A stretch of 64,000 nt of DNA from an uncultured Alphaproteobacteria bacterium (GCA_902531755.1 CACAFI010000002.1:12321-76320); one strand, 5' to 3'. Shown: positions 9,766 through 44,145, numbered from the stretch's first letter. The notes: generated from the letters alone by a model not told the origin. Made by a program: numbers and translations.

Positions 9766-10938
9766 TCAAATATTTTTATGATTTTTTCTTATCAAAATAG
9801 TGATTATCCAGAATCTGGATTGTAAATAAAAAATCGGCGAGAGTAACAGTTTATCTAGCCTAAGGATATATCTTAAAGTGATAACTATCAATGGGTTAAG
9901 TTTCCAAAGATACAACATTAAGACACCTTTAGGCTTGTGAGTTTTTTTCATAATCGACAACTCTCCTTTTAATGGTAGAAACAGTGTTTTCATGTCAAAA
10001 GAGTTTTTGCCGAAGCAATTATAAGAATAACTCTCAATATACTTTCCAAAAAAATATTCAATCAATTTCTTTTCATTAAATGAAATTTCTGATTTCCAGC
10101 GATTTATTACTTCTAAGGATTTTCCTTGCACAGGTTTGCCGGATGAACTATTTCCCAACCAGGGGTGACCACCAAGAGTACTTTCATTCAAACACGGCTT
10201 AAAAGATATTTTCAGCCAGTCTGCAAGACTACTAACTGTAGTCTCATAGTCTGAATGCAAGTCTTCATTTTTCAACCGAAACCATTTTTCTTTTTTTCTC
10301 ACAAAAGAAAATCTTTCAATTTGTTGATAATCGAGTTTTAAATCTTTAATAGCTTTTATTAAGAGGTTGGAATATCCCAATCGTCTTCTTTGAACAAAAT
10401 TACCATTAGAATTAAGAATTTGTTTTTTTATTGACATAAAATTTGCCCTGGGATCTCTTACGATTTCTATAAATTTAGAATTTTGAAAGTCTTTTGCTAA
10501 TTGGTTTAACATTGTCGCTCTTCCTGGAAACTCGATAATTACCTTTATTTTATTAAGATCCTGTCCGATGGTTATTCCATATGCTTCATGCAACGCATAG
10601 AAAACATTCAATTTTGATAGTCCGTCTCTCTTCAGTAAGCTTTTGAAAGATTTCTTATATTGTTCAATGTCGCAATTGGAAAATTTTTCTGTTCCCGATT
10701 GCACTCCATAGAGAATTCCTGTTTTGAAGTTTGAGATTTTTGTTTTAGTTGTCCAAACATAAACCATTTCATCAAGGCTCAGATCTCTTCCCTCACAAAG
10801 ATATTCCCAATTAATACTGAACTTCAATTCCATAGGTAGCATGAGTATTTCTGGATGAGAGTCGAGGATGCTTTGGACAAATCCACCACCAGCTCTTCCT
10901 GGACAAATCAAAAAACCTATTGGCAAAGATTTTAGCAA
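9766..10938 (-). CDS. Sulfotransferase-fold protein with hydrophobic C-terminal tail (divergent 5'-PSB loop)
   Basis: The N-terminal loop CPGRAGGGFVQSILDSHPEI sits where the PAPS 5'-phosphosulfate loop is expected. A 3'-phosphate motif IEIVRDPRANFMS is present. The C-terminal ~50 aa are hydrophobic. TTG start. Paralog of 32528..33688. Confidence 0.65.
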   Translation of the reverse strand: MLKSLPIGFLICPGRAGGGFVQSILDSHPEILMLPMELKFSINWEYLCEGRDLSLDEMVYVWTTKTKISNFKTGILYGVQSGTEKFSNCDIEQYKKSFKSLLKRDGLSKLNVFYALHEAYGITIGQDLNKIKVIIEFPGRATMLNQLAKDFQNSKFIEIVRDPRANFMSIKKQILNSNGNFVQRRRLGYSNLLIKAIKDLKLDYQQIERFSFVRKKEKWFRLKNEDLHSDYETTVSSLADWLKISFKPCLNESTLGGHPWLGNSSSGKPVQGKSLEVINRWKSEISFNEKKLIEYFFGKYIESYSYNCFGKNSFDMKTLFLPLKGELSIMKKTHKPKGVLMLYLWKLNPLIVITLRYILRLDKLLLSPIFYLQSRFWIITILIRKNHKNI

Positions 10939-14600: not shown

Positions 14601-14606
14601 GGAAAA

Positions 14607-15389: not shown

Positions 15390-15399
15390 ATAATTTATT

Positions 15400-22754: not shown

Positions 22755-23807
22755 TTAAACACTAAGAAAGTCATCCAAAGATAATGGTGTTCCTTCTCCT
22801 ATTGGTCTCGACAATTTTTTTCCGACAAGCATTGGTAGAAAAGAAGGAGGCAATCCATTGCCAGGTCTCATTACTTTTACTAACGCCTCATGAAACTTTT
22901 CTCCTTCTTTTATATCTCTAGATGCTATCAAACTTCGTCTTAAGACCTTTGACGTATTCTCTTCTTCCTTAGTTTGGAATTTGAGATACGAGCCTAACGC
23001 TAATTTACACTCCCTCAGATCAAATATGAGCGCTTTAAGTTCAGATGGTTCTAACGAAGCTTTCTGGTCTATTCCGGGCAACTTTCTTGACAAGGTAAAG
23101 TGTTTCTCAATAGCGACTGCTCCCAGAGCAATAGCTGCAATGGAGGTTGTGTTTGTAGGAGTGTGATCCGAAAGACCAACGGGGACGTCAAAAACTCTTT
23201 GATATGTATTAAGCACCCGCAAGTTTGCGTTTTCGGGCTTCGATGGGTAGTTAGAGGTACATTGAAATAAAAGGAGAGGAGATTTAGAGCGTTGGAATAT
23301 TTTAACAGCCTCAATCACCTCGTTAAAGCTTGCCATACCCGACGAGAGTAGAACAGGCAGTTTACTATCTGCTAATTCCTCTAAAAATGGAATATTGGTT
23401 AAATTACAAGAGCTAACCTTTATAGCTTCGAGTTTAAGAGAAATAAGATCTCTAAGACTCCAAACTTCAAAAGGCGTTGATAGAAAGTCAATTTTTTCTT
23501 TTTTACAGTAATCAAAAAGATCCGAAGTTTGCTCCAAAGTTATTTCGCAACTCTTTATTATCTCTTTCTGGCTCTTATCCGAAAACTGATCCTGTTTTTG
23601 ATAGTCAGCTTTACCTGCACTTGGTGAAATATACTTATCTACGGAAAAGCTTTGTAACTTTACGCAATCAGCTCCACTCTCTTTTGCAGCATCAATCATT
23701 TCTTTAGCTAAGTGTATATCACCGTTATGGTTTATACCTATTTCTGCGATAACATATGGATTAGTGCTTTTTAAAATTTTATCTATCATATTCTTCCCAT
23801 TATTCAT
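22755..23807 (-). CDS. neuB: N-acylneuraminate/nonulosonate synthase (NeuB/PseI/LegI family) with C-terminal SAF domain
   Basis: IAEIGINHNGDIHLAKEMIDAAKESGADCVKLQ, GLSDHT, and a C-terminal SAF-like LIASRDIKEGEKF. Confidence 0.9.
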   Translation of the reverse strand: MNNGKNMIDKILKSTNPYVIAEIGINHNGDIHLAKEMIDAAKESGADCVKLQSFSVDKYISPSAGKADYQKQDQFSDKSQKEIIKSCEITLEQTSDLFDYCKKEKIDFLSTPFEVWSLRDLISLKLEAIKVSSCNLTNIPFLEELADSKLPVLLSSGMASFNEVIEAVKIFQRSKSPLLLFQCTSNYPSKPENANLRVLNTYQRVFDVPVGLSDHTPTNTTSIAAIALGAVAIEKHFTLSRKLPGIDQKASLEPSELKALIFDLRECKLALGSYLKFQTKEEENTSKVLRRSLIASRDIKEGEKFHEALVKVMRPGNGLPPSFLPMLVGKKLSRPIGEGTPLSLDDFLSV

Positions 23808-30576: not shown

Positions 30577-31956
30577 TCACTGATCAAATTCGTTTATTAA
30601 TTTTGATATCATTTTGAGCCTAGTCTCTACGATTTGATAAGACTCATTAGACTCGATATTTAATCTAATAAGGGGCTCAGTATTTGATTTACGAATATTA
30701 AATCGCCAGTTTTCAAAAGAAAAACTAACTCCATCTATCTTTTCGACGACTGAAACTGGGCTAAATTTTTCGGTTATCGAGGTCAATATTTTATCTGGGT
30801 TAGCTACCTCAAAGTTTATTTCCCCACTACTTGGAAATTTTGCAATTCTTTCATTAATCAGACCTCCTAAAGTCTTATCACTTTTACCAAGAAAATCCAA
30901 CATAAGCAAAAAAGCAATCATACCGCTATCACAATAATAAAAGTCTCTAAAATAGTGATGAGCAGAAATTTCACCGCCATAAATCGCATCGTATTTTCGC
31001 ATTAAAGCTTTAAAATGAGAGTGCCCCGTCTTTGATAAAATTCCAATTCCTCTATTATTCTTTATTATATCCTCAGTATTCCAAATAACTCTTGGATCAT
31101 AAATTATAGTAGAATCCTTATCCTTCAAAAGAAAAGCTTCTGCCAGCAGTCCGACCACGTACTCCCCCGGCACGAACTTACCATCTTTATCAAAGAAAAA
31201 ACACCTATCAAAATCACCGTCAAAGGCAACACCAAAATCTGCTTTTTTCTGTTTCACTAAATTACCTGTTAACTCCTGATTTTCCTTCAGCAAAGGATTA
31301 GGAATGCCCTTTGGGAAATTTGGATCAGGTTGATTCAAAAATTCATAAAATATTATTTTTCTATTTTTGAAATGTAGCTTTTTTATAATTTTACCCAGAG
31401 TAGGTCCCGCTGCACCGTTGCCACAATTAACGACTACTTTTAATGGTTTTGAAAAGTCTAAATCTACGAAACTAAGTACTTTATCCACATATTTACTCCT
31501 CGCTTCTTGAGATATATTTTTATACCCTCCCTTTTTCCTATCTAGCCAAATGCCATGTTCTGATAAATCTCTGATTTTCAAAAGTTCAATTTCATTATCT
31601 AGTGGAGCTGCTCCATACTTAACCATCTTTAGCCCGTTATATTCTAGGGGATTATGAGAGGCGGTTACTTCAATACCAGCGCACGCTGAAAATTGATTTA
31701 CTGCTGAGTACATTTCTTCAGTACCTGCCATTCCAATTTCTAATACATCTGAACCAGCATCCATCACACCCTGCGATGCAGTTTCTGCAAAACTTTTGGA
31801 AGTTTGTCGTGCATCAAAACCGACGACGATTTTCTTCGCCTCTAAATATTGAGCTAAGGATCTTGAAACCCTGTATACAACATCCTCGTCAAATCCTTTT
31901 CCAATGATACCTCTTACATCATAAGCTTTAAAACATTTAATCTCTCTGAAATTCAT
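30577..31956 (-). CDS. Phosphomannomutase/phosphoglucomutase
   Basis: Active-site TASHNP, metal loop AFDGDFDR and sugar loop GGEISAH. Confidence 0.9.
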   Translation of the reverse strand: MNFREIKCFKAYDVRGIIGKGFDEDVVYRVSRSLAQYLEAKKIVVGFDARQTSKSFAETASQGVMDAGSDVLEIGMAGTEEMYSAVNQFSACAGIEVTASHNPLEYNGLKMVKYGAAPLDNEIELLKIRDLSEHGIWLDRKKGGYKNISQEARSKYVDKVLSFVDLDFSKPLKVVVNCGNGAAGPTLGKIIKKLHFKNRKIIFYEFLNQPDPNFPKGIPNPLLKENQELTGNLVKQKKADFGVAFDGDFDRCFFFDKDGKFVPGEYVVGLLAEAFLLKDKDSTIIYDPRVIWNTEDIIKNNRGIGILSKTGHSHFKALMRKYDAIYGGEISAHHYFRDFYYCDSGMIAFLLMLDFLGKSDKTLGGLINERIAKFPSSGEINFEVANPDKILTSITEKFSPVSVVEKIDGVSFSFENWRFNIRKSNTEPLIRLNIESNESYQIVETRLKMISKLINEFDQ

Positions 31957-31978
31957 TGTTTGTATAAATTTATTTTAT

Positions 31979-32335
31979 TTAAGATTTGATTTTGGTTGAC
32001 AACTTAGTTTCTCTTTCCAATGCATCTATCTCTTTTCGAAGTTCCTCAAATTCCCTTTTTTTCCTTTTAATGAATCCAATGGTTAAGACGCTTTTTTCTC
32101 TGATACCTTTAGGTGTTAGAAGGTAAACGTACTGTTTTTTTGTTTTACTGGATTTAAAATTATCTAGCTTGACAAATCCTTTTTCGATCAAAGCCATTAA
32201 TATATAGTATGCATACCCATTCGAAACACCGAGTTTTTCAGCTATTTTCCTCGTAGACAACTCGGGCCTTGTGCTAATCAAATGTAATAACCTAAAGCTG
32301 GCATCTGCCAATCTTTTTTCTTTTTGGCTAACCAA
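31979..32335 (-). CDS. MarR-family EPS-associated winged-helix transcriptional regulator
   Basis: 118 aa with LLHLISTRPELSTRKIAEKLGVSNGYAYYILMALIEKGFV HTH and a C-terminal coiled coil. TTG start 7 nt after GGAG. Confidence 0.75.
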   Translation of the reverse strand: MVSQKEKRLADASFRLLHLISTRPELSTRKIAEKLGVSNGYAYYILMALIEKGFVKLDNFKSSKTKKQYVYLLTPKGIREKSVLTIGFIKRKKREFEELRKEIDALERETKLSTKIKS

Positions 32336-32346
32336 TAGTGATCTCC

Positions 32347-32358
32347 AAAGCTACCGCA
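32347..32358 (-). promoter_or_regulatory. ops-like element (TGCGGTAGCTTT on the coding strand) in the leader upstream of the MarR-like gene
   Basis: The minus-strand sequence reads CCGGTGCGGTAGCTTTGGAGATCACTATTG. The core GCGGTAG matches positions 2-8 of the enterobacterial ops consensus GGCGGTAGnnTG, and position 11 (T) also matches. An RfaH-like protein is encoded at 37476. Confidence 0.3.
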
Positions 32359-32527
32359 CCGGCTCCCTTTTTAGAAAGCCGTATTCTGGAAAAAAATTAA
32401 AAATCAGAACAATCATGAGGTTGCTCATTTTTGAACACTATATTATTAGTCATTTTTCGGCAAGAAAAATTAAAGAAGTAAGATGCCACTTAATATGAAG
32501 TTTTTAATAGGACTGTAATGAACGAGA

Positions 32528-33688
32528 CTAAAATGTATATCTGTTTGAAAGCAAGTAAAATATAAGCCTTCCTCTATTAATCGGATACATGAGCAGATTG
32601 TTGATAGTATATACAAAAAATTTCATAAAAAACCAAAATGAAAGACCTCTCTTACCAAATCTAGATCGCTTTAGTGCCTCTTTATGAGGAAGAATTTCTC
32701 CTTTCCAAGGTAGAAAGCAAGCAAATAGAGCCAATATTTTATTTGAAAATGACTTAGGGAAGACACCTTTATACCCTAAGGCGTTCATGCTATTCTCAAA
32801 TAAAAACTCTATCATTCTAATTTCAGAAGAAGACATTTGAGTTCTCCAGCGAAAAGCAATTTCAGGGTTTATTCCAGTTATACCAGTGTCATTAAATGCA
32901 CTACTCGAAATGCTTGGCTTACCAATTCTAGTGGTTTTGAGCAGATTTTTGTTGAACTCCACGCCCAACCAGCGACATAGACTTGAAATGGTTCTTTTTG
33001 GGGCAGTCAAAATCTCCTCATGCTTTACAATCTTTAGCCTATCTTTAAAAGTTTTTTGATTTCGATGAAGCATTTTCATATTTGTCACCATATAGTCGTT
33101 CAGAATATGAAAAAATACGTTTCTTATTGTCCCGGAAATTGGGTTCATGGTACCCAGAGCTTGTCTATAATATTCCTTAAGAGAGTGAATGTTAGACCTA
33201 TGATCTTTTAAGATGTGAATAAATCGAGCTTCTGGAAAATCTTTAATTATAAAGCTCGTATAGTCACTATAGTAACCATCAGCAACAATTATTTTAAGTT
33301 TTTGGAAATCCTTTTTTAGAACTTTTGCGAAAGCGTAATAAATGGCAATTCGTGTGTTACGAGAGCAAACATGATTTTTGGATAAATATTGCCTGAAAAA
33401 CTTTTCATATAATTTCCAATTTATCATGGAGTAATCTTGTCTAGCACCCATATTTATAAAATAATCTTGCTTAAAGTTGACGATTTTTGAGGAGTAAAGA
33501 ACCTTATCGACTACATCATCAATGCTACTTTCATTATTAAGTTTGTTCTGGATCCAAACGGAACTAAATTTATCATTGAATGGCAGAACAACTATTTCGT
33601 CGTGATTGTCTAACAGAGTCCTCAATAAATCTGAACCGGATCTACCAGCCCCTTGCAAAAAAACTATAGGAAGTTGTTCAAATCTCAT
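32528..33688 (-). CDS. Sulfotransferase family protein with hydrophobic C-terminal tail
   Basis: Canonical-like 5'-PSB loop LQGAGRSGSDLLRTLLDNHDEI and 3'-phosphate region IHILKDHRSNIHS. Paralog of 9766..10938. Confidence 0.7.
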   Translation of the reverse strand: MRFEQLPIVFLQGAGRSGSDLLRTLLDNHDEIVVLPFNDKFSSVWIQNKLNNESSIDDVVDKVLYSSKIVNFKQDYFINMGARQDYSMINWKLYEKFFRQYLSKNHVCSRNTRIAIYYAFAKVLKKDFQKLKIIVADGYYSDYTSFIIKDFPEARFIHILKDHRSNIHSLKEYYRQALGTMNPISGTIRNVFFHILNDYMVTNMKMLHRNQKTFKDRLKIVKHEEILTAPKRTISSLCRWLGVEFNKNLLKTTRIGKPSISSSAFNDTGITGINPEIAFRWRTQMSSSEIRMIEFLFENSMNALGYKGVFPKSFSNKILALFACFLPWKGEILPHKEALKRSRFGKRGLSFWFFMKFFVYTINNLLMYPINRGRLIFYLLSNRYTF

Positions 33689-33939
33689 TTATTTTTGGAA
33701 TGCAAATCTTATCTTTTTTATACATCCAATGATATTATTTAAGTACATTATTATCAACAATTTATAATCTTTTTCAAGTGCCCTCAAAAGGGCGGACTCT
33801 ATCAAAACTTTTTTAAATTTTGTAACGATATTGAATTAGGCGTTTAATATGTGCGTAATATGAATTATAAAAGATTTTAGTTTTAAATCTTATAACTATT
33901 TTTTACTGAAGGTAATGCGATTATTCAGGTGGTAAAATC

Positions 33940-35010
33940 ATGACGACCTTGAAACTAAAATCTGAGCAGTTTTTGGATTGCTTAAACATTGCGGGGGGGT
34001 TGTTTAATCCTTTAGACGGGTTCATGTCATGTAAGGAAATTAATAGTGTATTGAATGACCTCTATTTGTTAAATGGTTCGCCATGGACAATTCCTATATC
34101 TCTAGACGTCCCTTATGAAATTTACTTCCGAAAAAGTCAGATAGATATTATGTCGCTTGAATTTGATCACAAGGGTGTTGGTAGTTTAGAGGTAGATGGT
34201 TTTTATGAGTTAGATCAACAAGCTTACATAAAAGCTCTTTATGGAACAGAAGATGAAGAACACCCCGGTGTAAAACAAGAAATGACAAAATCAAAATACA
34301 GGGTTGCTGGCAAGATTAAAATAAATGAAAAGGTTATGCGAAACTATATCGAGTCTGCTGAGATAATAAAATCTCAATTGAAGGGGAAAGGATGGGACTC
34401 AATAGTTGGGTTCCAGACAAGAAATCCTATCCATAGAGCGCACGAATATCTTCAAAGAACTGTTTTGGAGCTTTTTGATGGATTGTTTATAAATCCCTTA
34501 ACTGGATGGAAGAAGAAAGGTGACTTTACTGAAAAAGCAGTGCTAAACGGTTATGAAGCGATGATAGAGAATTATTATTCTGGATTAAATGTCTTTATGA
34601 AACCTCTTAGAACCTCTATGAAATATGCAGGGCCTAAAGAAGCAATACATCATGCGATACTAAGAAAGAACATTGGTTGCACTCACTTTATAGTAGGTAG
34701 AGATCATGCTGGGGTGTCAAACTATTATGGAGATTATGAAGCCCACTCGTTGATTAATAAATTAAAAATGAACGGATATAATATAGGCATTAAAATACTT
34801 TTAATGAAGGAACCAGTTTATTGTAATTTTTGTGGACATGTGGTTACAGAAAACTCTTGTTCACATGAATCTAAATATAAGGAAAAAATAAGTGGAACCC
34901 AAATAAGACTTTTGTTAAAACGAGGCGAAATGCCTCCAGCCAGATTCATGAGAGAAGAAGTATCGAAGGCTGTAATGAGCTTAGGCAAAAATATATTTAT
35001 AAACTCATGA
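33940..35010 (+). CDS. sat: Sulfate adenylyltransferase (ATP sulfurylase, single-subunit Sat type)
   Basis: QTRNPIHRAHEYL and VGRDHAGV motifs. Size is 356 aa. Confidence 0.9.
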   Translation: MTTLKLKSEQFLDCLNIAGGLFNPLDGFMSCKEINSVLNDLYLLNGSPWTIPISLDVPYEIYFRKSQIDIMSLEFDHKGVGSLEVDGFYELDQQAYIKALYGTEDEEHPGVKQEMTKSKYRVAGKIKINEKVMRNYIESAEIIKSQLKGKGWDSIVGFQTRNPIHRAHEYLQRTVLELFDGLFINPLTGWKKKGDFTEKAVLNGYEAMIENYYSGLNVFMKPLRTSMKYAGPKEAIHHAILRKNIGCTHFIVGRDHAGVSNYYGDYEAHSLINKLKMNGYNIGIKILLMKEPVYCNFCGHVVTENSCSHESKYKEKISGTQIRLLLKRGEMPPARFMREEVSKAVMSLGKNIFINS

Positions 35011-35020
35011 AAGGATTTCA

Positions 35021-35965
35021 ATGGAAAAGATAATTGCAACTGTAGGGCCATCTCTTTTAAACCAATATCCGATAAATAAAGTATATTCAGATGATTTAAT
35101 TTTCCGCGTAAATGGTGCACATGGAAGCATATCTCATATAAAAGAGTATATAGAAAAAATAAGAAGAGAGAGAAAAGATGCATTAATTCTTATGGATTTG
35201 CCAGGCAATAAAATCAGAACAAATAATATAAACGAACCTATAAAACTAAAAGTTGGAGAACCATTTGAATTAAATTTCCAACAGACCAACTTTGCTAACT
35301 TTTTTAAATATATTAAGAAAGGAGACAAAGTTTGGGCAAATGACTCGACTTATGAATTTGAAGTTATGAAAGTAAATCAAGAGCATGAAATTATTACCTT
35401 TCTTTCTAAATCCGAAGGTCTTCTTCTAAACAATAAAGGAATGCATGTGAGGGGAATTCATAAGGATATTCCCTTCCTTTTTGATAAAGACATCAAACTT
35501 ATTGAATTAGCAAATAAGATGGATTTACAATTTATCGGTCTATCGTTTGTTAGAAACTTGAAAGATATAAAAAGTGCTAAAGAGCTTGTTAACCAGAATG
35601 TACAAATTATTACAAAGGTTGAGACGAAGGCTGCCGTTGAGAATCTTAACGAAATTTTAAATAATACCGACTTTATATTAATTGACAGAGGAGACCTATC
35701 AACTGAAGTAGGTCTGGAAAATATACCGTCTTACCAGAAGCATATCTTAAGTATAGCTAAGGTGCACGGAGTAAAAACATTTTTGGCAACACAATTTCTT
35801 AAAAATATGGAACACAACCCTGTCCCATCGATACCAGAGATAATAGATTTATATAACACCATTACAGAGGGTATTTATGGCATTCAACTGTCTGAAGAAA
35901 CTGCTGTCGGCAAGCATCCCTATAGCTGTATACAACTCGTAAGAAACATGTTAAAAAAAACCTAG
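35021..35965 (+). CDS. Pyruvate kinase-like protein, A+B domains only (no C-terminal regulatory domain)
   Basis: PK motifs are present: FRVNGAHG, MDLPGNKIRT, KVETKAAVENL, IDRGDLSTEVG, ATQFLKNM, SEETAVGKHP. The PTRAE motif is altered to PSIPE, and the protein ends ~25 aa after GKHP. Confidence 0.75.
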   Translation: MEKIIATVGPSLLNQYPINKVYSDDLIFRVNGAHGSISHIKEYIEKIRRERKDALILMDLPGNKIRTNNINEPIKLKVGEPFELNFQQTNFANFFKYIKKGDKVWANDSTYEFEVMKVNQEHEIITFLSKSEGLLLNNKGMHVRGIHKDIPFLFDKDIKLIELANKMDLQFIGLSFVRNLKDIKSAKELVNQNVQIITKVETKAAVENLNEILNNTDFILIDRGDLSTEVGLENIPSYQKHILSIAKVHGVKTFLATQFLKNMEHNPVPSIPEIIDLYNTITEGIYGIQLSEETAVGKHPYSCIQLVRNMLKKT

Positions 35966-36078
35966 TTTTATAAGAGCAGAGTGAGAAATAAAACTTTAAA
36001 AATTATGTTGTTCTTTCGGTGAGTGTGCTTGAAGAAAATTAATAATATTTTTAAAAAAAGAAAAAGGATCTATCTGAT

Positions 36079-36792
36079 TTGGAGCTTTTACTTTACACCA
36101 CTATTGTAATAGTTTGCTTTGTTCAATCCATATTTGGAGTAGGAGTACTTTTATTAGGAACACCAACATTACTTATATTAGGTTATTCTTTTGTTGAGAC
36201 ACTGTCTCATTTGTTACCATTGTCACTTTTAATTAACTGCCTTCAGATCTATAACAATGGAAAAATAGTAGATTGGAACTTCATCAAACTTCTTCTTTTT
36301 TTCTCCATTCCCTCGACTGGTATTTGTCTGTATCTATCCTTATATTTTAGTTTTGATATTAGCCTAATTTTAGGCATATTTATGGTGATGTTAGCTCTAA
36401 AAAATACCACTCAAAAAATTGAAAAAGTTTTCAGTTTTTTGTTAAAAAAAGATATTGCTGTATTCACTTTCTTAGGGGTAATTCATGGCTTTACTAATTT
36501 GGGTGGCTCGATATTATCCATGAAGATTTTTATCCTTGATTATGATAAAGATATGAAAAGGGCAACAATGGCTACCGCATATTTTTTATTAGCAATAATC
36601 CAACTTTCTATCATTTTTTTAACGCAGCAGAGACTCAAATTTGACCCTACTTTTCTTCTGTTAGGAATAGCAACTTTTATTGTAACAGAACAATTTGTTT
36701 TCAAAAATCTTAGCCTGAAGCTCTTTGATAAGCTTTTTGCATATATAATTTTGATATTTGGTCTAAGCTTAATTATCAAGAGTGTCATATGA
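36079..36792 (+). CDS. TSUP (TauE/SafE) family membrane transporter
   Basis: 237 aa, ~7-8 hydrophobic helices with an internal repeat (GVGVLLLGTP / FTNLGGSIL). TTG start. Confidence 0.7.
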   Translation: MELLLYTTIVIVCFVQSIFGVGVLLLGTPTLLILGYSFVETLSHLLPLSLLINCLQIYNNGKIVDWNFIKLLLFFSIPSTGICLYLSLYFSFDISLILGIFMVMLALKNTTQKIEKVFSFLLKKDIAVFTFLGVIHGFTNLGGSILSMKIFILDYDKDMKRATMATAYFLLAIIQLSIIFLTQQRLKFDPTFLLLGIATFIVTEQFVFKNLSLKLFDKLFAYIILIFGLSLIIKSVI

Positions 36793-37310
36793 TCATCTGG
36801 CTAATTGGAATTTCTGGATCAGGAAAATCTACGTTGGGCAATTTGTTGTTTTCACAAATATCTAAAACGGGAAATAAAGTTCGGTTGATTGATGGCGATA
36901 TCGTTAGAGATTTTTTTAACAATGATCTTGGTTATTCTAGAAAAGCTAGAGAAGAAAATATAAAAAGAATAATCTATGGTGCTTATCTATTAGAAAACGA
37001 AAATATTATCACCATTGTGTGCAACATCTCACCTTTTCAAAAACTAAGATACTTCTGCAGGAATAACTTTAAACAATATATAGAGATTTATTTAGAAAAA
37101 GATTATGAAACAGCAAAAATAAATGATTTTAAGGGTGTCTATAAAAATAACAAGATCTTGTCCAACGATATAGTGGGACGTGATATAATGTTTGAAGATC
37201 CAGTTACTTGCGACTTAAGAATTTCAACAGATAATTGCACTATTGAGCATGCGATGAAGCAAATAACTGAATTTCTTAATAATAATACCGACCTAGAGAT
37301 AAAAAGCTAA
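36789..37310 (+). CDS. cysC: Adenylyl-sulfate (APS) kinase
   Basis: IWLIGISGSGKSTLG, LIDGDIVR and LGYSRKAREENIKRI match the CysC pattern. ATGA overlap with the TSUP gene, in an operon with sat. Confidence 0.8.
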   Translation: MIIWLIGISGSGKSTLGNLLFSQISKTGNKVRLIDGDIVRDFFNNDLGYSRKAREENIKRIIYGAYLLENENIITIVCNISPFQKLRYFCRNNFKQYIEIYLEKDYETAKINDFKGVYKNNKILSNDIVGRDIMFEDPVTCDLRISTDNCTIEHAMKQITEFLNNNTDLEIKS

Positions 37311-37475
37311 ACCAGTTTCGAAACAAATCAATTCTTCTTACGCTCTTTAAAAAGACTATAGCAATAAAAACAGTTGTATTTTTATTTTGAGATGTTTGCC
37401 ATAAAATGATGACAACGGATTTTAGTGATGATAAGTATGATTTATAACTAATAATATAATGTTTGGAACTTAAAT

Positions 37476-37988
37476 TTGGAAAGCTGTAACGGCCATAACT
37501 GGTTTGTAGCACAATATAAGCCCAACTCATTTTTTATAGCAACGAAAAATCTCGAGAGACAAGGTTGTACAACATTTATGCCACTAGTGGAGTTAACTAG
37601 TAGGAAAAAGACAAGTTTCTTGACGGAGAAAAAGCCCTTATTCCCAGGGTATATATTCATTTCATTTGATGAAAAGAAATTCCACTGGTCGGCAATCAAC
37701 AATACATTAGGCTTGAGCAGATTATTAGTTATGGATAATCATCCACAAATTGTACCAAAATCTTTCATTCAATCTCTAAAGGCTAGGTGTGATAACAACG
37801 GGAAACTGTTAAAAAAACCATCTATCGAAATCGGCTCTAGAGTTGAGGTAATAAAAGGGCCATTCTCTAAGGTCATCGGAGCAATTGAAACAATACACCC
37901 TGAAAAACGGCTTTCGTTCCTATTTGAAATTCTAGGAAGACAAACAAAAATAACGCTACCTAAGTCTGATGTGATGAATATAACTTAG
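37476..37988 (+). CDS. rfaH: RfaH-like specialised NusG paralog (transcription antiterminator)
   Basis: Aligns by eye along its whole length with E. coli RfaH: WFVAQYKPNS, NLERQG, KKPLFPGYIFISFD, INNTLGLSRLL, IVPKSFI. The KOW region is IGSRVEVIKGPFSKVIGAI. TTG start. Confidence 0.8.
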   Translation: MESCNGHNWFVAQYKPNSFFIATKNLERQGCTTFMPLVELTSRKKTSFLTEKKPLFPGYIFISFDEKKFHWSAINNTLGLSRLLVMDNHPQIVPKSFIQSLKARCDNNGKLLKKPSIEIGSRVEVIKGPFSKVIGAIETIHPEKRLSFLFEILGRQTKITLPKSDVMNIT

Positions 37989-38644
37989 TAACCTTAGTTC
38001 TATATGAGACGGCATTTATATTTTAGCTGTTGTGATCTTGGACAAGATTAAACGCTTCAATAGATTTGTTTTTCATATTTCTGATAGCGCGTTCAGACTT
38101 GCATGGTAGAAATTGAGAAATAAATCAGGAGTGCTAGATTTATCGTTTCATAGTCTTCAATATAGCTATATTCTGTCTTTCAAGCGATATGGAACAGTGC
38201 CAGAAGTTATTGTATTTCGTTATAGCCATTATTACGCTATTTGCAAATTTCACATAAGAGATAATATAACCAATGGCACTATGTTGCTAAATGAAGCATT
38301 AAGCAATACCAAAAATATAAGCTGCACCCCGACAATATTTTTAGCTGTTTTTTTGAAATTCCTCTAACTCCTTTTGATATTCACTTTTCTCTGCTTCATC
38401 GTTCAAGAACTTTGCTAACACCAAAGGTTACAGCCCAGTAAACAATTCAATAATAAAAAAATTAAAGGACCTTTTTTTTCCTTTTTTAATTATCAGAGTC
38501 CTATAAAATTATACTTCCAAGAGCAGATCTGTCTTAGGCAACCACAATTTGGTCACAAAAAAAGAAAAATGGTTGAACCTGAGACATTAAAACAGAGTGC
38601 CGTTGCATCCGTATATGTGGCATAGATCATTAATTCAAATTAAG

Positions 38645-38721
<77 letters not shown>

Positions 38722-38760
38722 AGTAGATTAATTACATTAAGTTGTGTTGTTTGTCCAATC

Positions 38761-39798
38761 TTAATTATTTCTCAAAATGATATTCAAGGGGGTTTTATCC
38801 CTTTCTCTTACCAACTCAAAACTACCACCCTTTGTCCACCCCCATATCATATTTCTTGCTTCATCTTTTTCAAAAAGTTTTACCATTTTATTGAGAATAT
38901 TTCTCTTTATAGATTTAGAGCAGGGTAAAAAATCAATCAATATCTTTCCACCTATTCCTAATATTCGGATCAAGTAATATATCTCATCACATGCTTTAGA
39001 ATTCAATTCATCTGCACTTATACTTAGTACTTTCCCCGAATTCACATCAATAGTATAAAAAGAATCTGTTTGCTCGAGGATTAGGTATGATCCCTCACCA
39101 AAAAACACTTTCTTTCTTGTGAGTTTTTCTAATAAATCCCAAATTCCAAGTCTTTCAAATATCCCCCTTTCCTCCTTTACAAAGTACAGAGACCAATCAA
39201 ATCTTTTAGCAGAAATACATCTTGCAAATCCATCATGAAACTCATTTCCCTTATTTAGCGAATTTATCATTTCATCTTTCGTTTCAAGTATCAGCTTTAG
39301 ATTTTCTTCAATTCCTTTTAAATCAAGTTGACAAATAGCCGATCTGCAAAGAACAAAAATGTTGGAATGTCTTTTTAAAATGAATTCAATAAGATGGGTA
39401 GCTTTCTCTTTATCAACGCTTTTTGGAGTTTTTTTTGAAAAAGAGATGCCTCTTTTACCCAATTGAAGCACAAAATATTTTGAGATCAGCTTCAATTGAT
39501 CCGTAAACGTTTGAGCCTTTTCTGAATCAAAATAAACTTTAGACAGTACATTCACAACTTTCCCCTGATCATATTGATTTTTAGATTTAAGAAACCCTTC
39601 TTCTCCACTTGGCAAGGATATAAAATATCCTCCACGATTTGGTAATTTTCTTAATACTTTTGCTTTTACAAAGGTGTTAGGTGGATAGAAGCGTGCATTA
39701 ATTGGTGGATCAATAAATACGTCTATTACCATACCCTTGTCATATATGATAACAGCATCACCTTGTCCGAATTTATCAATAAATATTTCTGCAGTCAT
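38761..39798 (-). CDS. Ribonuclease E/G family protein (short RNase G-like)
   Basis: The N-terminus MTAEIFID matches the E. coli RNase G MTAELLVN. An S1-like segment (AKVLRKLPNRGGYFISLP) and the IDVNSGK catalytic motif are present. The track ORF begins 12 codons earlier, at 39834. Confidence 0.75.
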   Translation of the reverse strand: MTAEIFIDKFGQGDAVIIYDKGMVIDVFIDPPINARFYPPNTFVKAKVLRKLPNRGGYFISLPSGEEGFLKSKNQYDQGKVVNVLSKVYFDSEKAQTFTDQLKLISKYFVLQLGKRGISFSKKTPKSVDKEKATHLIEFILKRHSNIFVLCRSAICQLDLKGIEENLKLILETKDEMINSLNKGNEFHDGFARCISAKRFDWSLYFVKEERGIFERLGIWDLLEKLTRKKVFFGEGSYLILEQTDSFYTIDVNSGKVLSISADELNSKACDEIYYLIRILGIGGKILIDFLPCSKSIKRNILNKMVKLFEKDEARNMIWGWTKGGSFELVRERDKTPLNIILRNN

Positions 39799-41582: not shown

Positions 41583-42878
41583 TTAAAGATCTTTAAGCCT
41601 TTCTGATATCGAAAGGGAATGTGCTTGAAGGCCCTCTGAGTCAGCTAATCTGACAACTGATGACCCAAGCTTTTTAAATCCATTTTTGTTAACTTTAGTA
41701 ACAGATACTCTCTTAAGAAAATCAAAAACTGATAACGCCGATGAAAACTTCGCTGTTCCAGCTGTAGGTAGTATATGGTTCGAACCCGTGATATAGTCTC
41801 CCATAGCTTCAGGAGACCAGTAGCCTAAAAAGACTGATCCAGCGTTTTTTATAAGACCTAGTTGTTTTTTAGCCTCTGAAAAACAAAGTTGCAAATGTTC
41901 TGGAGCAATTATGTTAGCAATCTCAATTCCCTTTTTGAAATTGGGAACGATAACAATAGCACCAAAATTTTTCCAACTAGATCTAGCAATTTCTTTTCTT
42001 TTTAGCTTTGTCAGATAATTATCAATTTCTCTTCCTACCTCTAATGCATATTCTCGATCATTAGTAATTAGAATAGATTGAGCGTTTTCATCATGCTCTG
42101 CTTGCGATAACAAATCTATTGCCGCAATTTTCTTTGGCATACTTTTATCACAAATAAGCAAAACTTCTGACGGTCCAGCAACCGAGTCTATGCCAACTTT
42201 ACCAAAAACTTGCCTTTTTGCTTCTGCAACATACTCATTACCTGGTCCAGTAATTTTATTGACTTTTTGTATAGCTTCCGTACCAAAAGCTAGTGCAGCT
42301 ATAGCTTGAGCTCCTCCCAATCGTAATATTTGAGTAACATTCAAGCGATAGGAGGCATATAATGTTAATGGATTATAAATACCGTTTGGGCTAGGCGACA
42401 CCAAAATAATGTCTTCGACTCCAGCTACCCGTGCAGGAGAAAGATTCATAATGGCTGAAGATGGGTATGACGCTTTACCGCCAGGTACATAAACGCCAAC
42501 ACGGTCAATAGGCCTCCATACCCATCCTAGTTCAATACCTAATTGATCCTTCCAATTGACATTTGAGGGCATTTGCTTTTGGTGATATTCTAAAATGCGA
42601 TTGATAGATAGATCGATTGCCTCTCTATCTTGTTTTTTACATTTATCTATACTGTCCAGAATATCGGATGACTTAAAAAATATTCCTGACTTTCTTAAAT
42701 CAAGCTTATCAAATTTTTTAGTATATTCAAATAAAGCCTGGTCTCCTCTAGTTTTAACGTCAGCAATTATTTTTCTCACTGAGTCACTAATGTCAGTTTT
42801 TGCGTAGCCTCTCGCCTTTAAAAAATTTCGAAACTCAGTCGAAAACTTTGCATCATCAGAAAAGAAAATATTAGACAT
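41583..42878 (-). CDS. hisD: Histidinol dehydrogenase
   Basis: 431 aa with GPGNEYVAEAKRQVFG, QAEHDENA and HILPTAGTAKFSSALSV motifs. Confidence 0.95.
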   Translation of the reverse strand: MSNIFFSDDAKFSTEFRNFLKARGYAKTDISDSVRKIIADVKTRGDQALFEYTKKFDKLDLRKSGIFFKSSDILDSIDKCKKQDREAIDLSINRILEYHQKQMPSNVNWKDQLGIELGWVWRPIDRVGVYVPGGKASYPSSAIMNLSPARVAGVEDIILVSPSPNGIYNPLTLYASYRLNVTQILRLGGAQAIAALAFGTEAIQKVNKITGPGNEYVAEAKRQVFGKVGIDSVAGPSEVLLICDKSMPKKIAAIDLLSQAEHDENAQSILITNDREYALEVGREIDNYLTKLKRKEIARSSWKNFGAIVIVPNFKKGIEIANIIAPEHLQLCFSEAKKQLGLIKNAGSVFLGYWSPEAMGDYITGSNHILPTAGTAKFSSALSVFDFLKRVSVTKVNKNGFKKLGSSVVRLADSEGLQAHSLSISERLKDL

Positions 42879-42879
42879 T

Positions 42880-44145
42880 CTAAAGCCTTTTTATGACTGC
42901 GCCACAAGCAGTGAGTTTTTCAATAATATTTTCATATCCTCTGTCTATATGATGAATTTTATCAATTACAGTGTTTCCATTAGCAACCAACCCAGCCAAA
43001 ACCATTGAAACGGAGGCACGAAGATCTGTTGCTTGGACTGGCGCTCCCTTTAATTGATCGACTCCCGATATAATAGCTTTTCGTCCATCTATTTTAATAT
43101 TAGCGCCCATTCTTATAAGTTCAGGCACATGCATAAATCGATTTTCAAAAATTTTTTCTTCAATATTCGACACTCCGTTTGCGATTGATAATAAGGCCAT
43201 CATTTGAGCCTGAAGATCTGTTGGAAAGCCGGGAAAGGGTTCGGTCACGATGTTAGTACAATTGATTACGTTGCTTTTTAATCTTTTTACCCTCAAATGA
43301 TCAGAAGCTTGAGTCACCTCAACACCTACTTCATGAAGCTTATTAATGAAGGCCTCAAGAAGAGCGATATTACCGCCAGTTAACTTGATTTCTCCGTCAG
43401 AGATCGCCGCAGCGATTATATAGGTGCCAAGTTCAATTCTATCCATAACCACTTCATGTGTCGTTTCTCTGAGGTTAGTTACGCCCTCTATAATAATAGT
43501 GTTTTCTCCCTCACCTTCAATTTCACAACCCATTGATTTTAAACACTTACACAAATCAATAATCTCTGGTTCTCTAGCTGCATTTACTAATTCAGTTGTT
43601 CCTTTAGCAAGAACGGCTGCCATTATCGTATTTGCTGTTGCGCCAACTGACACAAATGGAAACTTTATTTTACATCCTTTCAACGAACCTGCTACCATTC
43701 CTTTTACGTATCCTTTGTCAATTGAAAAGCGTGCACCAAGCGCTTCCAACGCCATGAGGTGCATATCCACCGGTCTTGCGCCTATGGCACACCCTCCTGG
43801 AAGTGCAACTATTCCTTGACCAAACCTAGTTAATAAAGGACCTAAAACAAGAATAGACGCCCTCATTTTTTTTACTATATTGTAATCTGCCAGAAACAAC
43901 CCTTCTCTTAATAATTTGATTTTAATCGTTTTTTTTAAGTTGTGAAATGAAGCCTCACAACCGAGGCTTTCTAGTAACTCCTTCATTGTGTGAACATCGG
44001 ATAAAAGCGGGACATTATTCAAACTTAATGCTTGATCGCTGAGTAAAGAAAGTGGCATTAGAGTTAAACACGAGTTTTTCGCGCCAGCAATGGGTATACT
44101 CCCGGATAGCTTTTTTCCACCTTCAATGAAAATTTTCTCTTTCAA
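42880..44145 (-). CDS. murA: UDP-N-acetylglucosamine 1-carboxyvinyltransferase
   Basis: IAGAKNS N-terminus, LPGGCAIGARPVDMH active-site Cys loop. 421 aa, TTG start. Confidence 0.95.
   Translation of the reverse strand: MKEKIFIEGGKKLSGSIPIAGAKNSCLTLMPLSLLSDQALSLNNVPLLSDVHTMKELLESLGCEASFHNLKKTIKIKLLREGLFLADYNIVKKMRASILVLGPLLTRFGQGIVALPGGCAIGARPVDMHLMALEALGARFSIDKGYVKGMVAGSLKGCKIKFPFVSVGATANTIMAAVLAKGTTELVNAAREPEIIDLCKCLKSMGCEIEGEGENTIIIEGVTNLRETTHEVVMDRIELGTYIIAAAISDGEIKLTGGNIALLEAFINKLHEVGVEVTQASDHLRVKRLKSNVINCTNIVTEPFPGFPTDLQAQMMALLSIANGVSNIEEKIFENRFMHVPELIRMGANIKIDGRKAIISGVDQLKGAPVQATDLRASVSMVLAGLVANGNTVIDKIHHIDRGYENIIEKLTACGAVIKRL

Follow-up and report, generated by a model that had tools for sequence, protein, structure and literature searches.

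The window, by which we mean the whole 64,000-nucleotide (64-kb) stretch of DNA analyzed, derives from an uncultured Alphaproteobacteria bacterium and carries at 33940-37310 a plus-strand operon of four genes, encoding an ATP sulfurylase (Sat), a short pyruvate kinase, a TauE/SafE (TSUP) permease and an APS-kinase-family protein (Table 1). Open reading frames (ORFs) were found where a preliminary description of the sequence had placed these genes and the divergent sulfotransferase gene, and their positions bear out the spacers given there of 10 nt, 113 nt and a 4-nt overlap. The gene identities proposed in that description were likewise recovered by Pfam (ATP-sulfurylase, PK barrel, TauE, APS_kinase and the divergent Sulfotransfer_3). 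In the window's 47 scanned ORFs, comprising its large non-nested ORFs and two shorter ones, no PAPS_reduct or sulfite-reductase domain was detected by Pfam, as had been claimed, and neither were CysQ/Inositol_P domains, aprAB or other sulfite-oxidising genes. A tblastn search of the window with CysQ and PAPS_reduct queries gave a best E value of 0.79. Comparison of the operon genes in the window with those of the related locus L005 gave dN/dS values of 0.13-0.17, so these genes are under purifying selection.

Table 1. Features at and around the operon, in window coordinates.
Feature	Position	Strand	Basis
ST2, second Sulfotransfer_3 paralog	9766..10938	-	PF13469, 40 bits
MarR-family EPS-associated regulator	31979..32335	-	TIGR04176 MarR_EPS, 123.7 bits (cutoff, 88)
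Ops-like block GAGCCGGTGCGGTAGCT, conserved, preceding the MarR_EPS gene and long minus-strand glycan genes	32349..32365	-	Three-locus identity
ST1, Sulfotransfer_3 family, 386 aa, divergent from sat	32528..33688	-	PF13469, 60 bits
ST1-sat divergent intergenic region, 251 bp, presumed promoters	33689..33939	.	Sequence read
sat, single-subunit ATP sulfurylase (PUA-like and catalytic domains), 356 aa	33940..35010	+	Pfam, NCBIfam, motifs
Short pyruvate kinase, A and B domains only, 314 aa	35021..35965	+	PF00224, AlphaFold, synteny
TauE/SafE (TSUP) permease, 237 aa, TTG start	36079..36792	+	PF01925 above cutoff
cysC, APS-kinase-family protein, 173 aa	36789..37310	+	PF01583, 111.5 bits; motifs
RfaH/NusG-paralog antiterminator-like gene, closing the plus-strand gene group	37476..37988	+	NusG N-terminal domain
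tRNA-Phe, boundary of conserved core and variable glycan island	38645..38719	-	ARAGORN, Rfam

In Sat, the ATP-sulfurylase domain (PF01747, 255 bits) is preceded by a PUA_2 domain (PF14306, 103 bits). The protein scored 387 bits against NCBIfam NF003166, equal to the cutoff of that model, and 293.9 against TIGR00339, under its cutoff of 322.95. The translation contains both active-site motifs, QxRNPxHxxH as QTRNPIHRAH (FQTRNPIHRAHEYL) and GRDHAG as VGRDHAGV, matching the motifs quoted earlier (QTRNPIHRAHEYL and VGRDHAGV), and the sat product shares 83% identity with its L005 counterpart. The permease matched PF01925 with 55.3 bits (cutoff, 32.6) over residues 8-231, corresponding to profile positions 4-237 of 237, while no NCBIfam model gave a match. 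TSUP members include the Corynebacterium glutamicum sulfate transporter CysZ, but also sulfite and sulfonate exporters (PMC5840216). From this we infer sulfate import as a reasonable predicted role for the window's TSUP protein; the exporters within the family weigh against an importer reading.

The label "canonical APS kinase" given to the last gene was slightly generous. The best solved relatives of CysC are indeed bona fide APS kinases (8a8h, 92.5 bits), and all 24 PDB matches at an E value of ≤1e-5 are APS kinases, the APS-kinase domains of PAPS synthases, or ATP sulfurylases with an APS-kinase-like domain, but its scores fall under the cutoffs of all the NCBIfam equivalogs (TIGR00455, 120 versus 138.7; NF002059, 125.5 versus 244; NF004041, 101.4 versus 127). 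The translation shows the P-loop GISGSGKST, IDGDIVR (DGD), NISP and FKGVYK (KG-x-Y). Because the window encodes a further APS-kinase-family paralog, one of the Campylobacter Cj1415 type, the assignment of APS as the predicted substrate of CysC rests on its adjacency to sat.

The gene that the preliminary description had called pyruvate kinase-like and left unexplained proved to be the most informative gene of the operon. Its product matches the pyruvate kinase barrel (PF00224, 184 bits, profile positions 5-327 of 328) and stops at the barrel end, with no Pfam match to PK_C, the C-terminal regulatory/tetramer domain. In a Foldseek search with the AlphaFold (AF2) model (pLDDT, 90.3), the top PDB matches were all pyruvate kinases, with TM scores of 0.84-0.87 on the query and about 0.54 of the target covered. 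The protein nevertheless scores under every NCBIfam pyruvate kinase cutoff (NF004491, 239 versus 432; TIGR01064, 235 versus 306), so that none of these curated models fits it. A family search returned 1419 matches, the best 120 of which were each 314-326 aa long with PF00224 as the sole domain; proteins of this family, about 320 aa in length, share 54-62% identity across phyla from Campylobacterota to Planctomycetota. We found no description of a short pyruvate kinase linked to sat in the literature searched.

Alignment of 22 family members from several phyla (mean column identity, 71%) showed that R29, N31, H34, D59, K64, R66, K139, K199, E201, D225 and E293 are invariant, while S291 is Ser or Ala and the Thr of PTRAE is Thr or Ser. 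The catalytic Lys, the metal-binding Glu/Asp, and the Arg/Lys/Asn residues that bind PEP and nucleotide phosphate align to canonical pyruvate kinase motifs. Three motifs are specific to the family, NGAHG, PFLFxKD and P(T/S)IPE, of which the first and last replace the canonical NFSHG and PTRAE, and because of these substitutions a change of substrate is possible. As a best inference, the short kinase would regenerate ATP from ADP with PEP and so drive PAPS synthesis.

Metagenome loci for synteny counts were retrieved by the pyruvate kinase motifs alone. At 52 of the 55 loci with enough flank, sat lay directly upstream of the short kinase gene on the same strand, and cysC lay within 2.5 kb at 38 of 46. 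A CysQ-like gene was directly downstream at 26 of 61 loci, and a TauE gene was present at 13 of the 23 loci with wide flanks as well as at L001, L003, L171 and L172. Furthermore, natural fusions of the kinase to both partner enzymes were found, with PK::APS_kinase represented by six clusters at 50% identity and Sat::PK by a single one, and these suggest a physical coupling of the short kinase to Sat and APS kinase. Since the locus of the Sat::PK fusion (L168) adjoins sulfate-ABC-like genes and a PAPS_reduct-family gene, the partnership may serve sulfate activation generally and not sulfation alone. Related short kinases of the same branch are fused to MobA-like nucleotidyltransferases (PK::NTP_transf_3; P0258, P0275 and P0282), which points to other roles for these relatives. 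Sulfotransferase genes adjoin the cassette in Thalassomonas, in an NRPS cluster, and at L169, L170 and L171, and cassettes with such neighbors occur within glycan or NRPS clusters of unrelated phyla; no sulfotransferase Pfam domain was found within 8-9 kb of the cassette in Arcobacter, Sedimentisphaerales or L172.

In the window, the gene divergent from sat encodes ST1, whose 5'-PSB loop (GAGRSGSDLL) aligns with GVPRSGTTLM of TPST2 and whose 3'-PB stretch (KDHRSNIHS) aligns with RDGRASVHS; both motifs also align with those of a PKS sulfotransferase domain (4gox). A protein with 79% identity occupies the same position in L005. Judged by these motifs, ST1 is likely a PAPS consumer. The second paralog, ST2, shares 28% identity with ST1 over its full length and may likewise draw on PAPS or a PAPS-like donor.

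Several elements around the operon may bear on its expression. The RfaH-like protein has a NusG N-terminal domain (56.7 bits) and scored 108.9 against the RfaH model TIGR01955 (cutoff, 144.5), and its gene is found at the equivalent position in L005 and L006. The ops-like block ahead of the MarR_EPS gene does not differ among the window, L005 and L006, and the intergenic region around it has a mean column identity of 64%. A search with the ops pattern alone gave 17 matches versus 10.4 expected, which is not above chance. The block (GGTGCGGTAGCT), a putative ops site, lies upstream of the glycan genes. In the ST1-sat intergenic region, AGGTGG sits 8 nt before the sat ATG, and promoter-like matches were no commoner than in shuffled sequence.

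The glycan genes form a strain-variable island. The same tRNA-Phe gene that marks its boundary follows rng in L005, L008 and L009. In L008, wzz and wza are the only genes past this tRNA before nuoA-D, and in the SAG relatives the segment likewise consists of wzz/wza alone, followed by nuo. ST1 and the sat-PK-TauE-cysC-rfaH group are kept in L005 and L006 at about 80% protein identity, and more distant syntenic relatives have neither the glycan island nor the operon. The premise that the host is SAR11-like was not supported. The GC content of the window is 0.349, versus 29.1% in Pelagibacter (bioRxiv 10.64898/2026.04.03.716430); the SAR11 glycan hypervariable region lies between the 23S and 5S rRNA genes (PMC11898729), whereas no rRNA genes were found in the window and its island adjoins tRNA-Phe; and the only labels of the syntenic relatives are "uncultured Alphaproteobacteria bacterium" and "Paracoccaceae bacterium," with none labeled Pelagibacterales.

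We consider it probable that the four genes constitute a self-contained PAPS module for cell-surface glycan sulfation within a strain-variable polysaccharide island. The direct results of the analysis are the gene identities, the conservation of catalytic residues, the fold, the synteny across phyla, the fusions, the variability of the island and the purifying selection. A dedicated role of the operon in sulfation is well supported, and the earlier proposal that it supplies PAPS for this purpose, and not obviously for sulfur assimilation, agrees with the divergent ST1, the variable glycan island and the sulfotransferase neighbors in other phyla. The lack in the window's cassette of the CysQ-like PAP phosphatase seen in many metagenome cassettes counts against this explanation, as do the cassettes with no sulfotransferase domain nearby. 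In the proposed mechanism, the enzymatic activities, the transport direction, the acceptor and any physical coupling are all deduced from family membership and genomic context. Sulfate would be taken up, probably via the TSUP permease, and converted by Sat with ATP to APS and PPi; APS kinase would then convert APS to PAPS, releasing ADP. The short kinase would return this ADP to ATP, spending PEP, and by holding ADP low at APS kinase would pull the unfavorable sulfurylase equilibrium, for a net reaction of sulfate + ATP + PEP to PAPS + PPi + pyruvate. The PAPS would be spent by ST1 and possibly also by ST2, and the RfaH-like factor, the ops-like site and the MarR_EPS regulator probably tie expression to the long glycan operon.

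Sat and CysC could instead serve ordinary assimilation, making PAPS for a PAPS reductase and a sulfite reductase whose genes lie elsewhere, with an incidental link to the glycan island. The data cover the 64-kb window, and a PAPS reductase elsewhere in the genome could also take PAPS; moreover, the Sat::PK fusion at L168 has sulfate-ABC-like transporter genes and a gene of the PAPS_reduct family as neighbors, and some relatives are labeled Paracoccaceae, among which sulfate assimilation is common. We nonetheless regard this reading as quite improbable, given that no PAPS_reduct or sulfite-reductase domain occurs in the 64 kb, that divergence from a sulfotransferase gene in an island missing from syntenic relatives is unexpected for housekeeping assimilation, and that in other phyla the cassette adjoins sulfotransferases in glycan or NRPS clusters, often together with a PAP phosphatase. 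Running Sat in reverse (APS + PPi to ATP + sulfate), with TauE exporting sulfite or sulfate, would make the operon a sulfite/sulfonate detoxification system. It would leave APS kinase, and the PAP phosphatase frequent in the cassettes, without a role, no aprAB or other sulfite-oxidising genes were found in the window, and the neighbors are sulfotransferase and glycan genes; this makes detoxification extremely improbable, although TauE is named for sulfite export (PMC5840216) and the idea follows a sat/aprAB proposal for marine heterotrophs. In pelagic SAR116, sat and aprAB have been read as sulfite oxidation (PMC8547437), and a Roseobacter survey instead takes sat/aprAB as dissimilatory sulfate reduction to sulfite, a potential left unclear there (PMC12661815).

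A different doubt concerns the short kinase alone, which might not recycle ADP; PEP could be used, or a phospho-enol or 2-phospho acid formed, in some other step, such as phosphorylation of a different acceptor or supply of a modified sugar substituent, with the remaining operon still making PAPS. The invariance of the residues that bind PEP, Mg2+ and nucleotide phosphate argues against this, and nucleotide recycling better fits a protein that is linked most tightly to Sat (52 of 55 loci) and to APS kinase, both with covalent fusions; pyruvate kinase and PEP are also the exact additives used in vitro to drive PAPS synthesis. We judge such other chemistry unlikely, with the family-specific changes in canonical motifs, the scores far under all curated cutoffs and the fusions of related kinases to MobA-like nucleotidyltransferases in its favor, together with the fact that a housekeeping pyruvate kinase is normally present in cells anyway.

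Beyond the PAPS module, we tentatively propose, at somewhat less than even confidence, that the sat-linked short kinases are a distinct, undescribed family that would act as the third catalytic component in a PAPS synthase driven by PEP, physically coupled to Sat and APS kinase, with ADP recycled in place and one adenylate used per PAPS. In the same proposal, the module would stand beside a parallel phosphoramidate-donor pathway, yielding a glycan whose sulfate and phosphoramidate are set by two paralogous sulfotransferase-fold enzymes. A built-in ATP regenerator, if real, would explain how an uphill, product-inhibited pathway is driven at high PAPS demand, and short kinases would be compact natural parts for enzymatic PAPS regeneration, a practical bottleneck for sulfated glycans and drugs. 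In marine microbiology, sulfated, and possibly phosphoramidated, surface glycans of abundant plankton matter both for recognition by phages and for the seawater pool of sulfated polysaccharide.

Surface-glycan sulfation with its own PAPS supply has precedents, and the operon alone is another example, from an uncultured marine alphaproteobacterium; the unexpected part is an undescribed short pyruvate kinase, which accompanies genes for sulfate activation across many phyla. Rhizobial NodP/NodQ, which act with NodH, are pathway-dedicated PAPS genes. Sulfonated-lanthipeptide clusters of Streptomyces carry CysCDN (PMC11143521). Both resemble the window in having a second, pathway-dedicated sulfate-activation set adjoining a PAPS-consuming sulfotransferase, but use CysD/CysN-type sulfurylases and have neither a pyruvate kinase nor a TSUP permease. 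The capsule cluster of Cobetia marina KMM 1449, for which a sulfated capsule was chemically verified, contains cysNC, cysD, cysQ, a sulfate permease and sulfotransferases (PMC11766843). As in the window, PAPS genes and their own sulfate transporter lie inside a surface-polysaccharide cluster beside sulfotransferases; however, Cobetia has a GTP-coupled CysD/CysN fused to CysC, another permease and CysQ, whereas the window has a single-subunit Sat, a TSUP permease and a short pyruvate kinase, with no CysQ.

Canonical pyruvate kinases (PykF/PykA and PKM) share the A and B fold and all of the catalytic and phosphate-binding residues with the short kinase, which differs from them in having no C-terminal allosteric/tetramerisation domain, in scoring under the curated cutoffs, in its own motifs and in its genomic partner, which is sat rather than glycolytic genes. 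Like many full-length enzymes, it has the cation-site motif form DLPGxK(I/V)R, and it resembles in particular the K+-independent canonical kinases, in which a Lys interpreted as an internal cation occupies the Glu117 position; PDB 7r6y is the E117K mutant of the rabbit enzyme. In the bifunctional PAPS synthases (Aquifex 2gks and human PAPSS1/2), PAPS-pathway enzymes are also fused or co-encoded, with intermediates or nucleotides handed on. These proteins join two pathway enzymes, whereas PK::APS-kinase and Sat::PK join a pathway enzyme to an ATP-regenerating one, and the window's Sat, pyruvate kinase and APS kinase are separate genes. Another parallel is the PAPS-generating mixture used in vitro, in which CysCDN is combined with pyruvate kinase, PEP and pyrophosphatase and the kinase with PEP recycles ADP (PMC11143521). 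The natural cassette has the same enzymes minus the pyrophosphatase, and a PEP-powered PAPS synthase, if confirmed, would be the natural counterpart of such engineered regeneration systems, which are laboratory designs with commercial full-length pyruvate kinase, whereas the combination in the cassette is encoded in the genome.

The four plus-strand open reading frames of the sat-PK-TauE-cysC operon and the divergent sulfotransferase gene beside it (ST1) were found exactly where the preliminary description had placed them, with the spacers that it gave (10 nt, 113 nt, and a 4-nt overlap). ATP sulfurylase (Sat) scored exactly at the cutoff of NCBIfam model NF003166. The cysC product had been called a canonical APS kinase; the Pfam domain is present, but the score falls under every NCBIfam APS-kinase cutoff (TIGR00455, 120 versus 138.7). 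A cytidine diphosphoramidate kinase of the Cj1415 type was considered for this protein and rejected, as it reached 101 bits with NF004041, a subfamily model that fits a paralog elsewhere in the window instead. In line with the earlier reading, a Pfam scan of 47 window ORFs revealed no PAPS-reductase or sulfite-reductase domain, and likewise no aprAB or CysQ domain, while CysQ and PAPS_reduct queries gave a best tblastn match of only E = 0.79 against the window.

Features of the window, listed from left to right
Feature	Position	Strand	Size and matches
WbuX-like amidotransferase::amidase fusion	1662-4331	-	889 aa
ST2, second Sulfotransfer_3 paralog	9766-10938	-	
Nucleotidyltransferase	10946-11671	-	
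Gamma-glutamyl-CDP-amidate-hydrolase-like amidotransferase	11668-12348	-	99 bits, below cutoff 250
PPDK_N and PEP-utilizer protein	12285-14600	-	NF004508, 953 bits
Methyltransferase	14607-15389	-	
APS-kinase paralog, PRK05541 subfamily	15400-15960	-	NF004041, 184.8 bits (cutoff 127)
ABC exporter	23957-25744	-	
MarR_EPS regulator	next minus-strand gene downstream of ST1	-	TIGR04176, 123.7 bits, above cutoff
Block GAGCCGGTGCGGTAGCT	32349-32365	-	17 nt
ST1	32528-33688	-	386 aa; Sulfotransfer_3, 60 bits
sat	33940-35010	+	356 aa; ATP-sulfurylase, 255 bits; PUA_2, 103 bits
Short PK	35021-35965	+	314 aa; PK barrel, 184 bits, profile positions 5-327 of 328
TauE (TSUP)	36079-36792	+	237 aa; TTG start; TauE, 55 bits (cutoff 32.6)
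cysC	36789-37310	+	173 aa; APS_kinase, 111 bits
RfaH/NusG paralog, fifth plus-strand gene	37476-37988	+	
tRNA-Phe	38645-38719		

ST1 carries a 5'-phosphosulfate loop (GAGRSGSDLL) and a 3'-phosphate motif (KDHRSNIHS), and these PAPS-site motifs align with those of tyrosylprotein sulfotransferase and of a PKS sulfotransferase domain. On these motifs, it is the obvious candidate to consume PAPS made by the operon. The TSUP protein would most simply be a sulfate importer, a direction of transport that we infer only; the family includes the CysZ sulfate transporter of C. glutamicum but sulfite exporters as well (PMC5840216).

The pyruvate-kinase-like protein of the operon (the short PK) lies far under all curated NCBIfam pyruvate-kinase cutoffs (239 versus 432; 235 versus 306), no curated NCBIfam model fits it, and Pfam detects no C-terminal PK domain. 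Its 21-bit, below-cutoff Pfam match to HpcH/HpaI-type aldolases was considered and rejected as an assignment, since the PK match spans the full length, the fold search retrieves pyruvate kinases and the kinase residues are conserved. An AlphaFold model built from a 22-member family alignment (mean column identity, 71%) was confident (pLDDT 90.3; pTM 0.89), and pyruvate kinases were its only matches in the PDB. TM scores reached 0.84-0.87 over the query, whereas the matches took in only ~0.54 of the targets; the short PK thus consists of the A and B domains and lacks the C domain.

To place residues, the 22-member alignment was set against solved pyruvate kinases. Invariant positions comprise R29, N31 and H34 (Arg, Asn and His of aRlNfSHG), D59 and R66 (Asp and Arg of lDtKGPEiR), K139 (the B-domain Lys), K199 and E201 (Lys and Glu of KIEn), and D225 (Asp of RGDLg); we take K199 to be the catalytic Lys and E201 and D225 to be metal ligands. 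In MLSgETa, E293 is invariant and S291 is conservatively Ser or Ala, while PTRAE has Thr or Ser at its Thr position. The position of Glu117 is occupied by an invariant Lys (K64, inside DLPGNK(V/I)R), the signature of K+-independent pyruvate kinases, which many full-length enzymes have as well.

Searching 5.8 billion proteins for relatives of the short PK gave 1419. The best 120 of these are all 314-326 aa long with the PK barrel domain only, and, three close relatives excepted, are 53-62% identical to the window protein; their hosts, which differ widely, include Arcobacter nitrofigilis, Malaciobacter, 'Candidatus Marinarcus', Thalassomonas viridans, and Sedimentisphaerales and other Planctomycetota. 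When the family profile was scored against 1.84 billion cluster representatives, 42 distinct short clusters (300-350 aa) appeared among its best 150 matches, concentrated in the highest ranks, ahead of most pyruvate kinases of ordinary size (450-480 aa).

The genomic partners of the short PK were scored by local tblastn in 80 metagenome loci that had been fetched by PK-family peptide motifs only. Among loci with enough flank, sat lay directly upstream of PK on the same strand in 52 of 55; two of the other three have a convergent sat immediately downstream and one has none. An APS-kinase gene was present within 2.5 kb upstream in 38/46, a CysQ-like inositol-phosphatase gene directly downstream in 26/61, and a TauE gene anywhere in the locus in 13/23. 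The commonest cassette order, TauE-cysC-sat-PK-cysQ, occurs in Arcobacter, Thalassomonas and metagenome locus L171, and the order of the window recurs in L088 and L172. Sulfotransferase genes flank several cassettes: a Sulfotransfer_2 gene in Thalassomonas, where the cassette lies within an NRPS cluster, a Sulfotransfer_3/1 gene immediately after PK in L170, and a Sulfotransfer_1 gene in L171. The most revealing evidence is natural gene fusion: among the nearest relatives of the PK, six 50%-identity clusters consist of PK::APS-kinase proteins (502-512 aa), and one is a 725-aa PUA_2-ATP-sulfurylase::PK protein. In L169, such a PK::APS-kinase fusion directly follows sat and a faint Sulfotransfer_3 match, in a glycan cluster.

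The equilibrium of ATP sulfurylase lies far on the substrate side, and formation of an enzyme-ADP-APS dead-end complex inhibits APS kinase. In the mechanism that we propose, Sat would yield APS and PPi, APS kinase would convert APS to PAPS and ADP, and the short PK would return ADP to ATP at the cost of PEP, keeping both steps moving; the 3'-phosphate of PAPS would thus be paid for by PEP rather than by a second ATP. Fusion to APS kinase, which produces ADP, and to Sat, which consumes ATP, supports a nucleotide hand-over of this kind, and the missing allosteric C domain fits an enzyme that would no longer need glycolytic regulation. Collectively, we lean slightly toward the short PK being a PEP-driven ADP-to-ATP recycler in PAPS synthesis. 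A laboratory PAPS-generating mixture, in which CysCDN is combined with pyruvate kinase, PEP and pyrophosphatase, is built in the same way, with pyruvate kinase and PEP alongside the sulfate-activating enzymes (PMC11143521, methods). Searches of a library of open-access full texts brought up no description of a pyruvate kinase in PAPS/sulfotransferase gene clusters; what they matched were in vitro coupling assays or papers on other subjects.

It is possible that the short PK has a different chemistry, given that motif variants peculiar to the family exist and that related short PKs are fused to MobA-like nucleotidyltransferases. These fusions of the same branch (P0258, P0275 and P0282; 571-585 aa) suggest a separate pathway in which a PK-type enzyme feeds nucleotidyl transfer. 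A Sat running in reverse for sulfite disposal is an unlikely reading: no aprAB partner was detected in the window, and the APS kinase would be left unexplained.

Ordinary sulfate assimilation, with the operon providing PAPS for a reductive pathway, is possible but less likely. The 725-aa Sat::PK fusion of metagenome locus L168 (1916-4093) lies beside glycosyltransferases, sulfate-ABC-like genes and a PAPS_reduct-family gene, a neighborhood which indicates that the PK partners with sulfate activation in general and may do so in assimilatory settings too. Against assimilation stand the location of the operon in a glycan island, its sulfotransferase neighbors and the frequent PAP phosphatase in the cassettes. 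From this gene context, we consider it quite probable that the operon serves specifically to provide PAPS for sulfation.

All genes from 1662 to 33688 lie on the minus strand and encode sugar-nucleotide and glycan-modifying enzymes: NeuB, DegT, PglD-like and PseF-like cytidylyltransferase proteins, UDP-sugar dehydrogenases and epimerases, ManC, GalU, phosphomannomutase, an asparagine-synthase-like amidotransferase, the unusual WbuX::amidase fusion, ST2 and a set of homologues of the Campylobacter phosphoramidate pathway. The large ORFs of this 32-kb region gave no match to glycosyltransferase, Wzx/Wzy or Wza/Wzz domains, the ABC exporter being all that turned up; the glycan assembly genes presumably sit outside the window, to its left. 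NeuB, CMP-transferase and DegT genes are also found in several sulfotransferase-flanked cassette clusters. The combination of a sat-PK cassette with NeuB, CMP-sugar cytidylyltransferase and DegT-type aminotransferase genes was observed in L170, L171, L172 and the window (4328-5032 and 22755-23807), and its recurrence raises the possibility that a glycan containing nonulosonic acid is the usual sulfation target.

Two metagenomic relative contigs, L005 and L006 (~80% protein identity), share with the window the order ST1, divergent sat-PK-TauE-cysC and RfaH-like gene, in a block bounded by phosphomannomutase/MarR genes and tRNA-Phe/rng. More distant single-cell genomes retain murA-hisD-UPF0262-LMW phosphatase-infA-maf-rng-tRNA-Phe, and past tRNA-Phe just two genes, for a Wzz/GNVR protein and a Wza-like exporter, precede nuoA-D. 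The sulfate-activation genes are therefore strain- or species-variable surface-glycan content and not core metabolism. The dN/dS of the operon genes between the window and L005 (0.13-0.17) indicates that they are maintained by selection. In the same comparison, dS was lower for island genes (33940-37988; 0.74-0.84) than for core hisD and murA (41583-44145; 1.18-1.37), estimates that are near saturation; this hints at an exchange of the island more recent than the divergence of the genomes.

The preliminary description had made an exclusive role of sulfate activation in glycan sulfation conditional on a SAR11-like genome, a premise that the data do not support. GC content is 0.349, alike in island and core, versus a mean of 29.1% in Pelagibacter genomes (bioRxiv 10.64898/2026.04.03.716430). 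In SAR11 the hypervariable glycan region lies between the 23S and 5S rRNA genes (PMC11898729); no rRNA gene was detected in the window, where the island abuts tRNA-Phe. For HisD, encoded in the conserved flank, all close matches are unnamed marine metagenome proteins. Against the species-representative genome collection, it best matches three tropical-ocean single-cell genomes (72-74% identity; next best, ~50%) that bear no label beyond 'uncultured Alphaproteobacteria bacterium'. Just one relative has a name, a MAG designated 'Paracoccaceae bacterium' (72%), whose contig has the gene order p450-EamA ... ABC-acyl-CoA ligase-murA-hisD-UPF0262-LMW phosphatase in common with the window. The source organism is a marine alphaproteobacterium, possibly of the Paracoccaceae.

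In the 192 nt that separate ST1 from the MarR_EPS gene, ahead of that gene and the long glycan operon, lies the block GAGCCGGTGCGGTAGCT, which is identical in the window, L005 and L006 in a spacer whose mean column identity is 64%. The block includes GCGGTAGC, the core of the enterobacterial ops element. Together with the neighboring RfaH-like gene, this ops-like block suggests antitermination control of the long glycan operon. In a plain pattern search with one mismatch allowed, matches to the E. coli ops core did not exceed chance (17 versus 10.4 expected), and the site is worth noting for the three-way conservation of this one site only, not for the pattern count. Consensus promoter and terminator scans of 31900-38800 were no better than shuffled sequence (38 versus 31 and 6 versus 3.3), and no transcription-unit claim is based on them.

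Separately, the genes at 10946-15960 (minus strand) resemble the O-methyl-phosphoramidate donor pathway of Campylobacter jejuni, and we equate them with Cj1415-Cj1418. Directly beside them lies ST2, a paralog 28% identical to ST1, which keeps the 3'-phosphate motif (RDPRANFMS) and has GRAGGG in place of GRSGS in the 5' loop. The altered loop, the retained motif and the gene neighbors prompt the idea, and purely an idea, that ST2 might transfer phosphoramidate from a PAPS-like 3'-phospho-CDP-amidate, not sulfate.

The island location and the sulfotransferase neighbors support the central proposal of the preliminary description, a dedicated PAPS supply for sulfation, but such an arrangement was already known. 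Pathway-dedicated PAPS genes adjoining sulfotransferases are established, rhizobial NodPQ being one case, and sulfotransferases in glycan islands of marine plankton are on record. The capsule cluster of Cobetia marina, whose sulfated capsule has been verified, carries cysNC, cysD, cysQ and a sulfate permease (PMC11766843), and Streptomyces sulfonated-lanthipeptide clusters carry CysCDN (PMC11143521). With these precedents, the operon is a further case of a known arrangement; what varies from the known systems is the single-subunit Sat, the TSUP permease and, above all, the short kinase.
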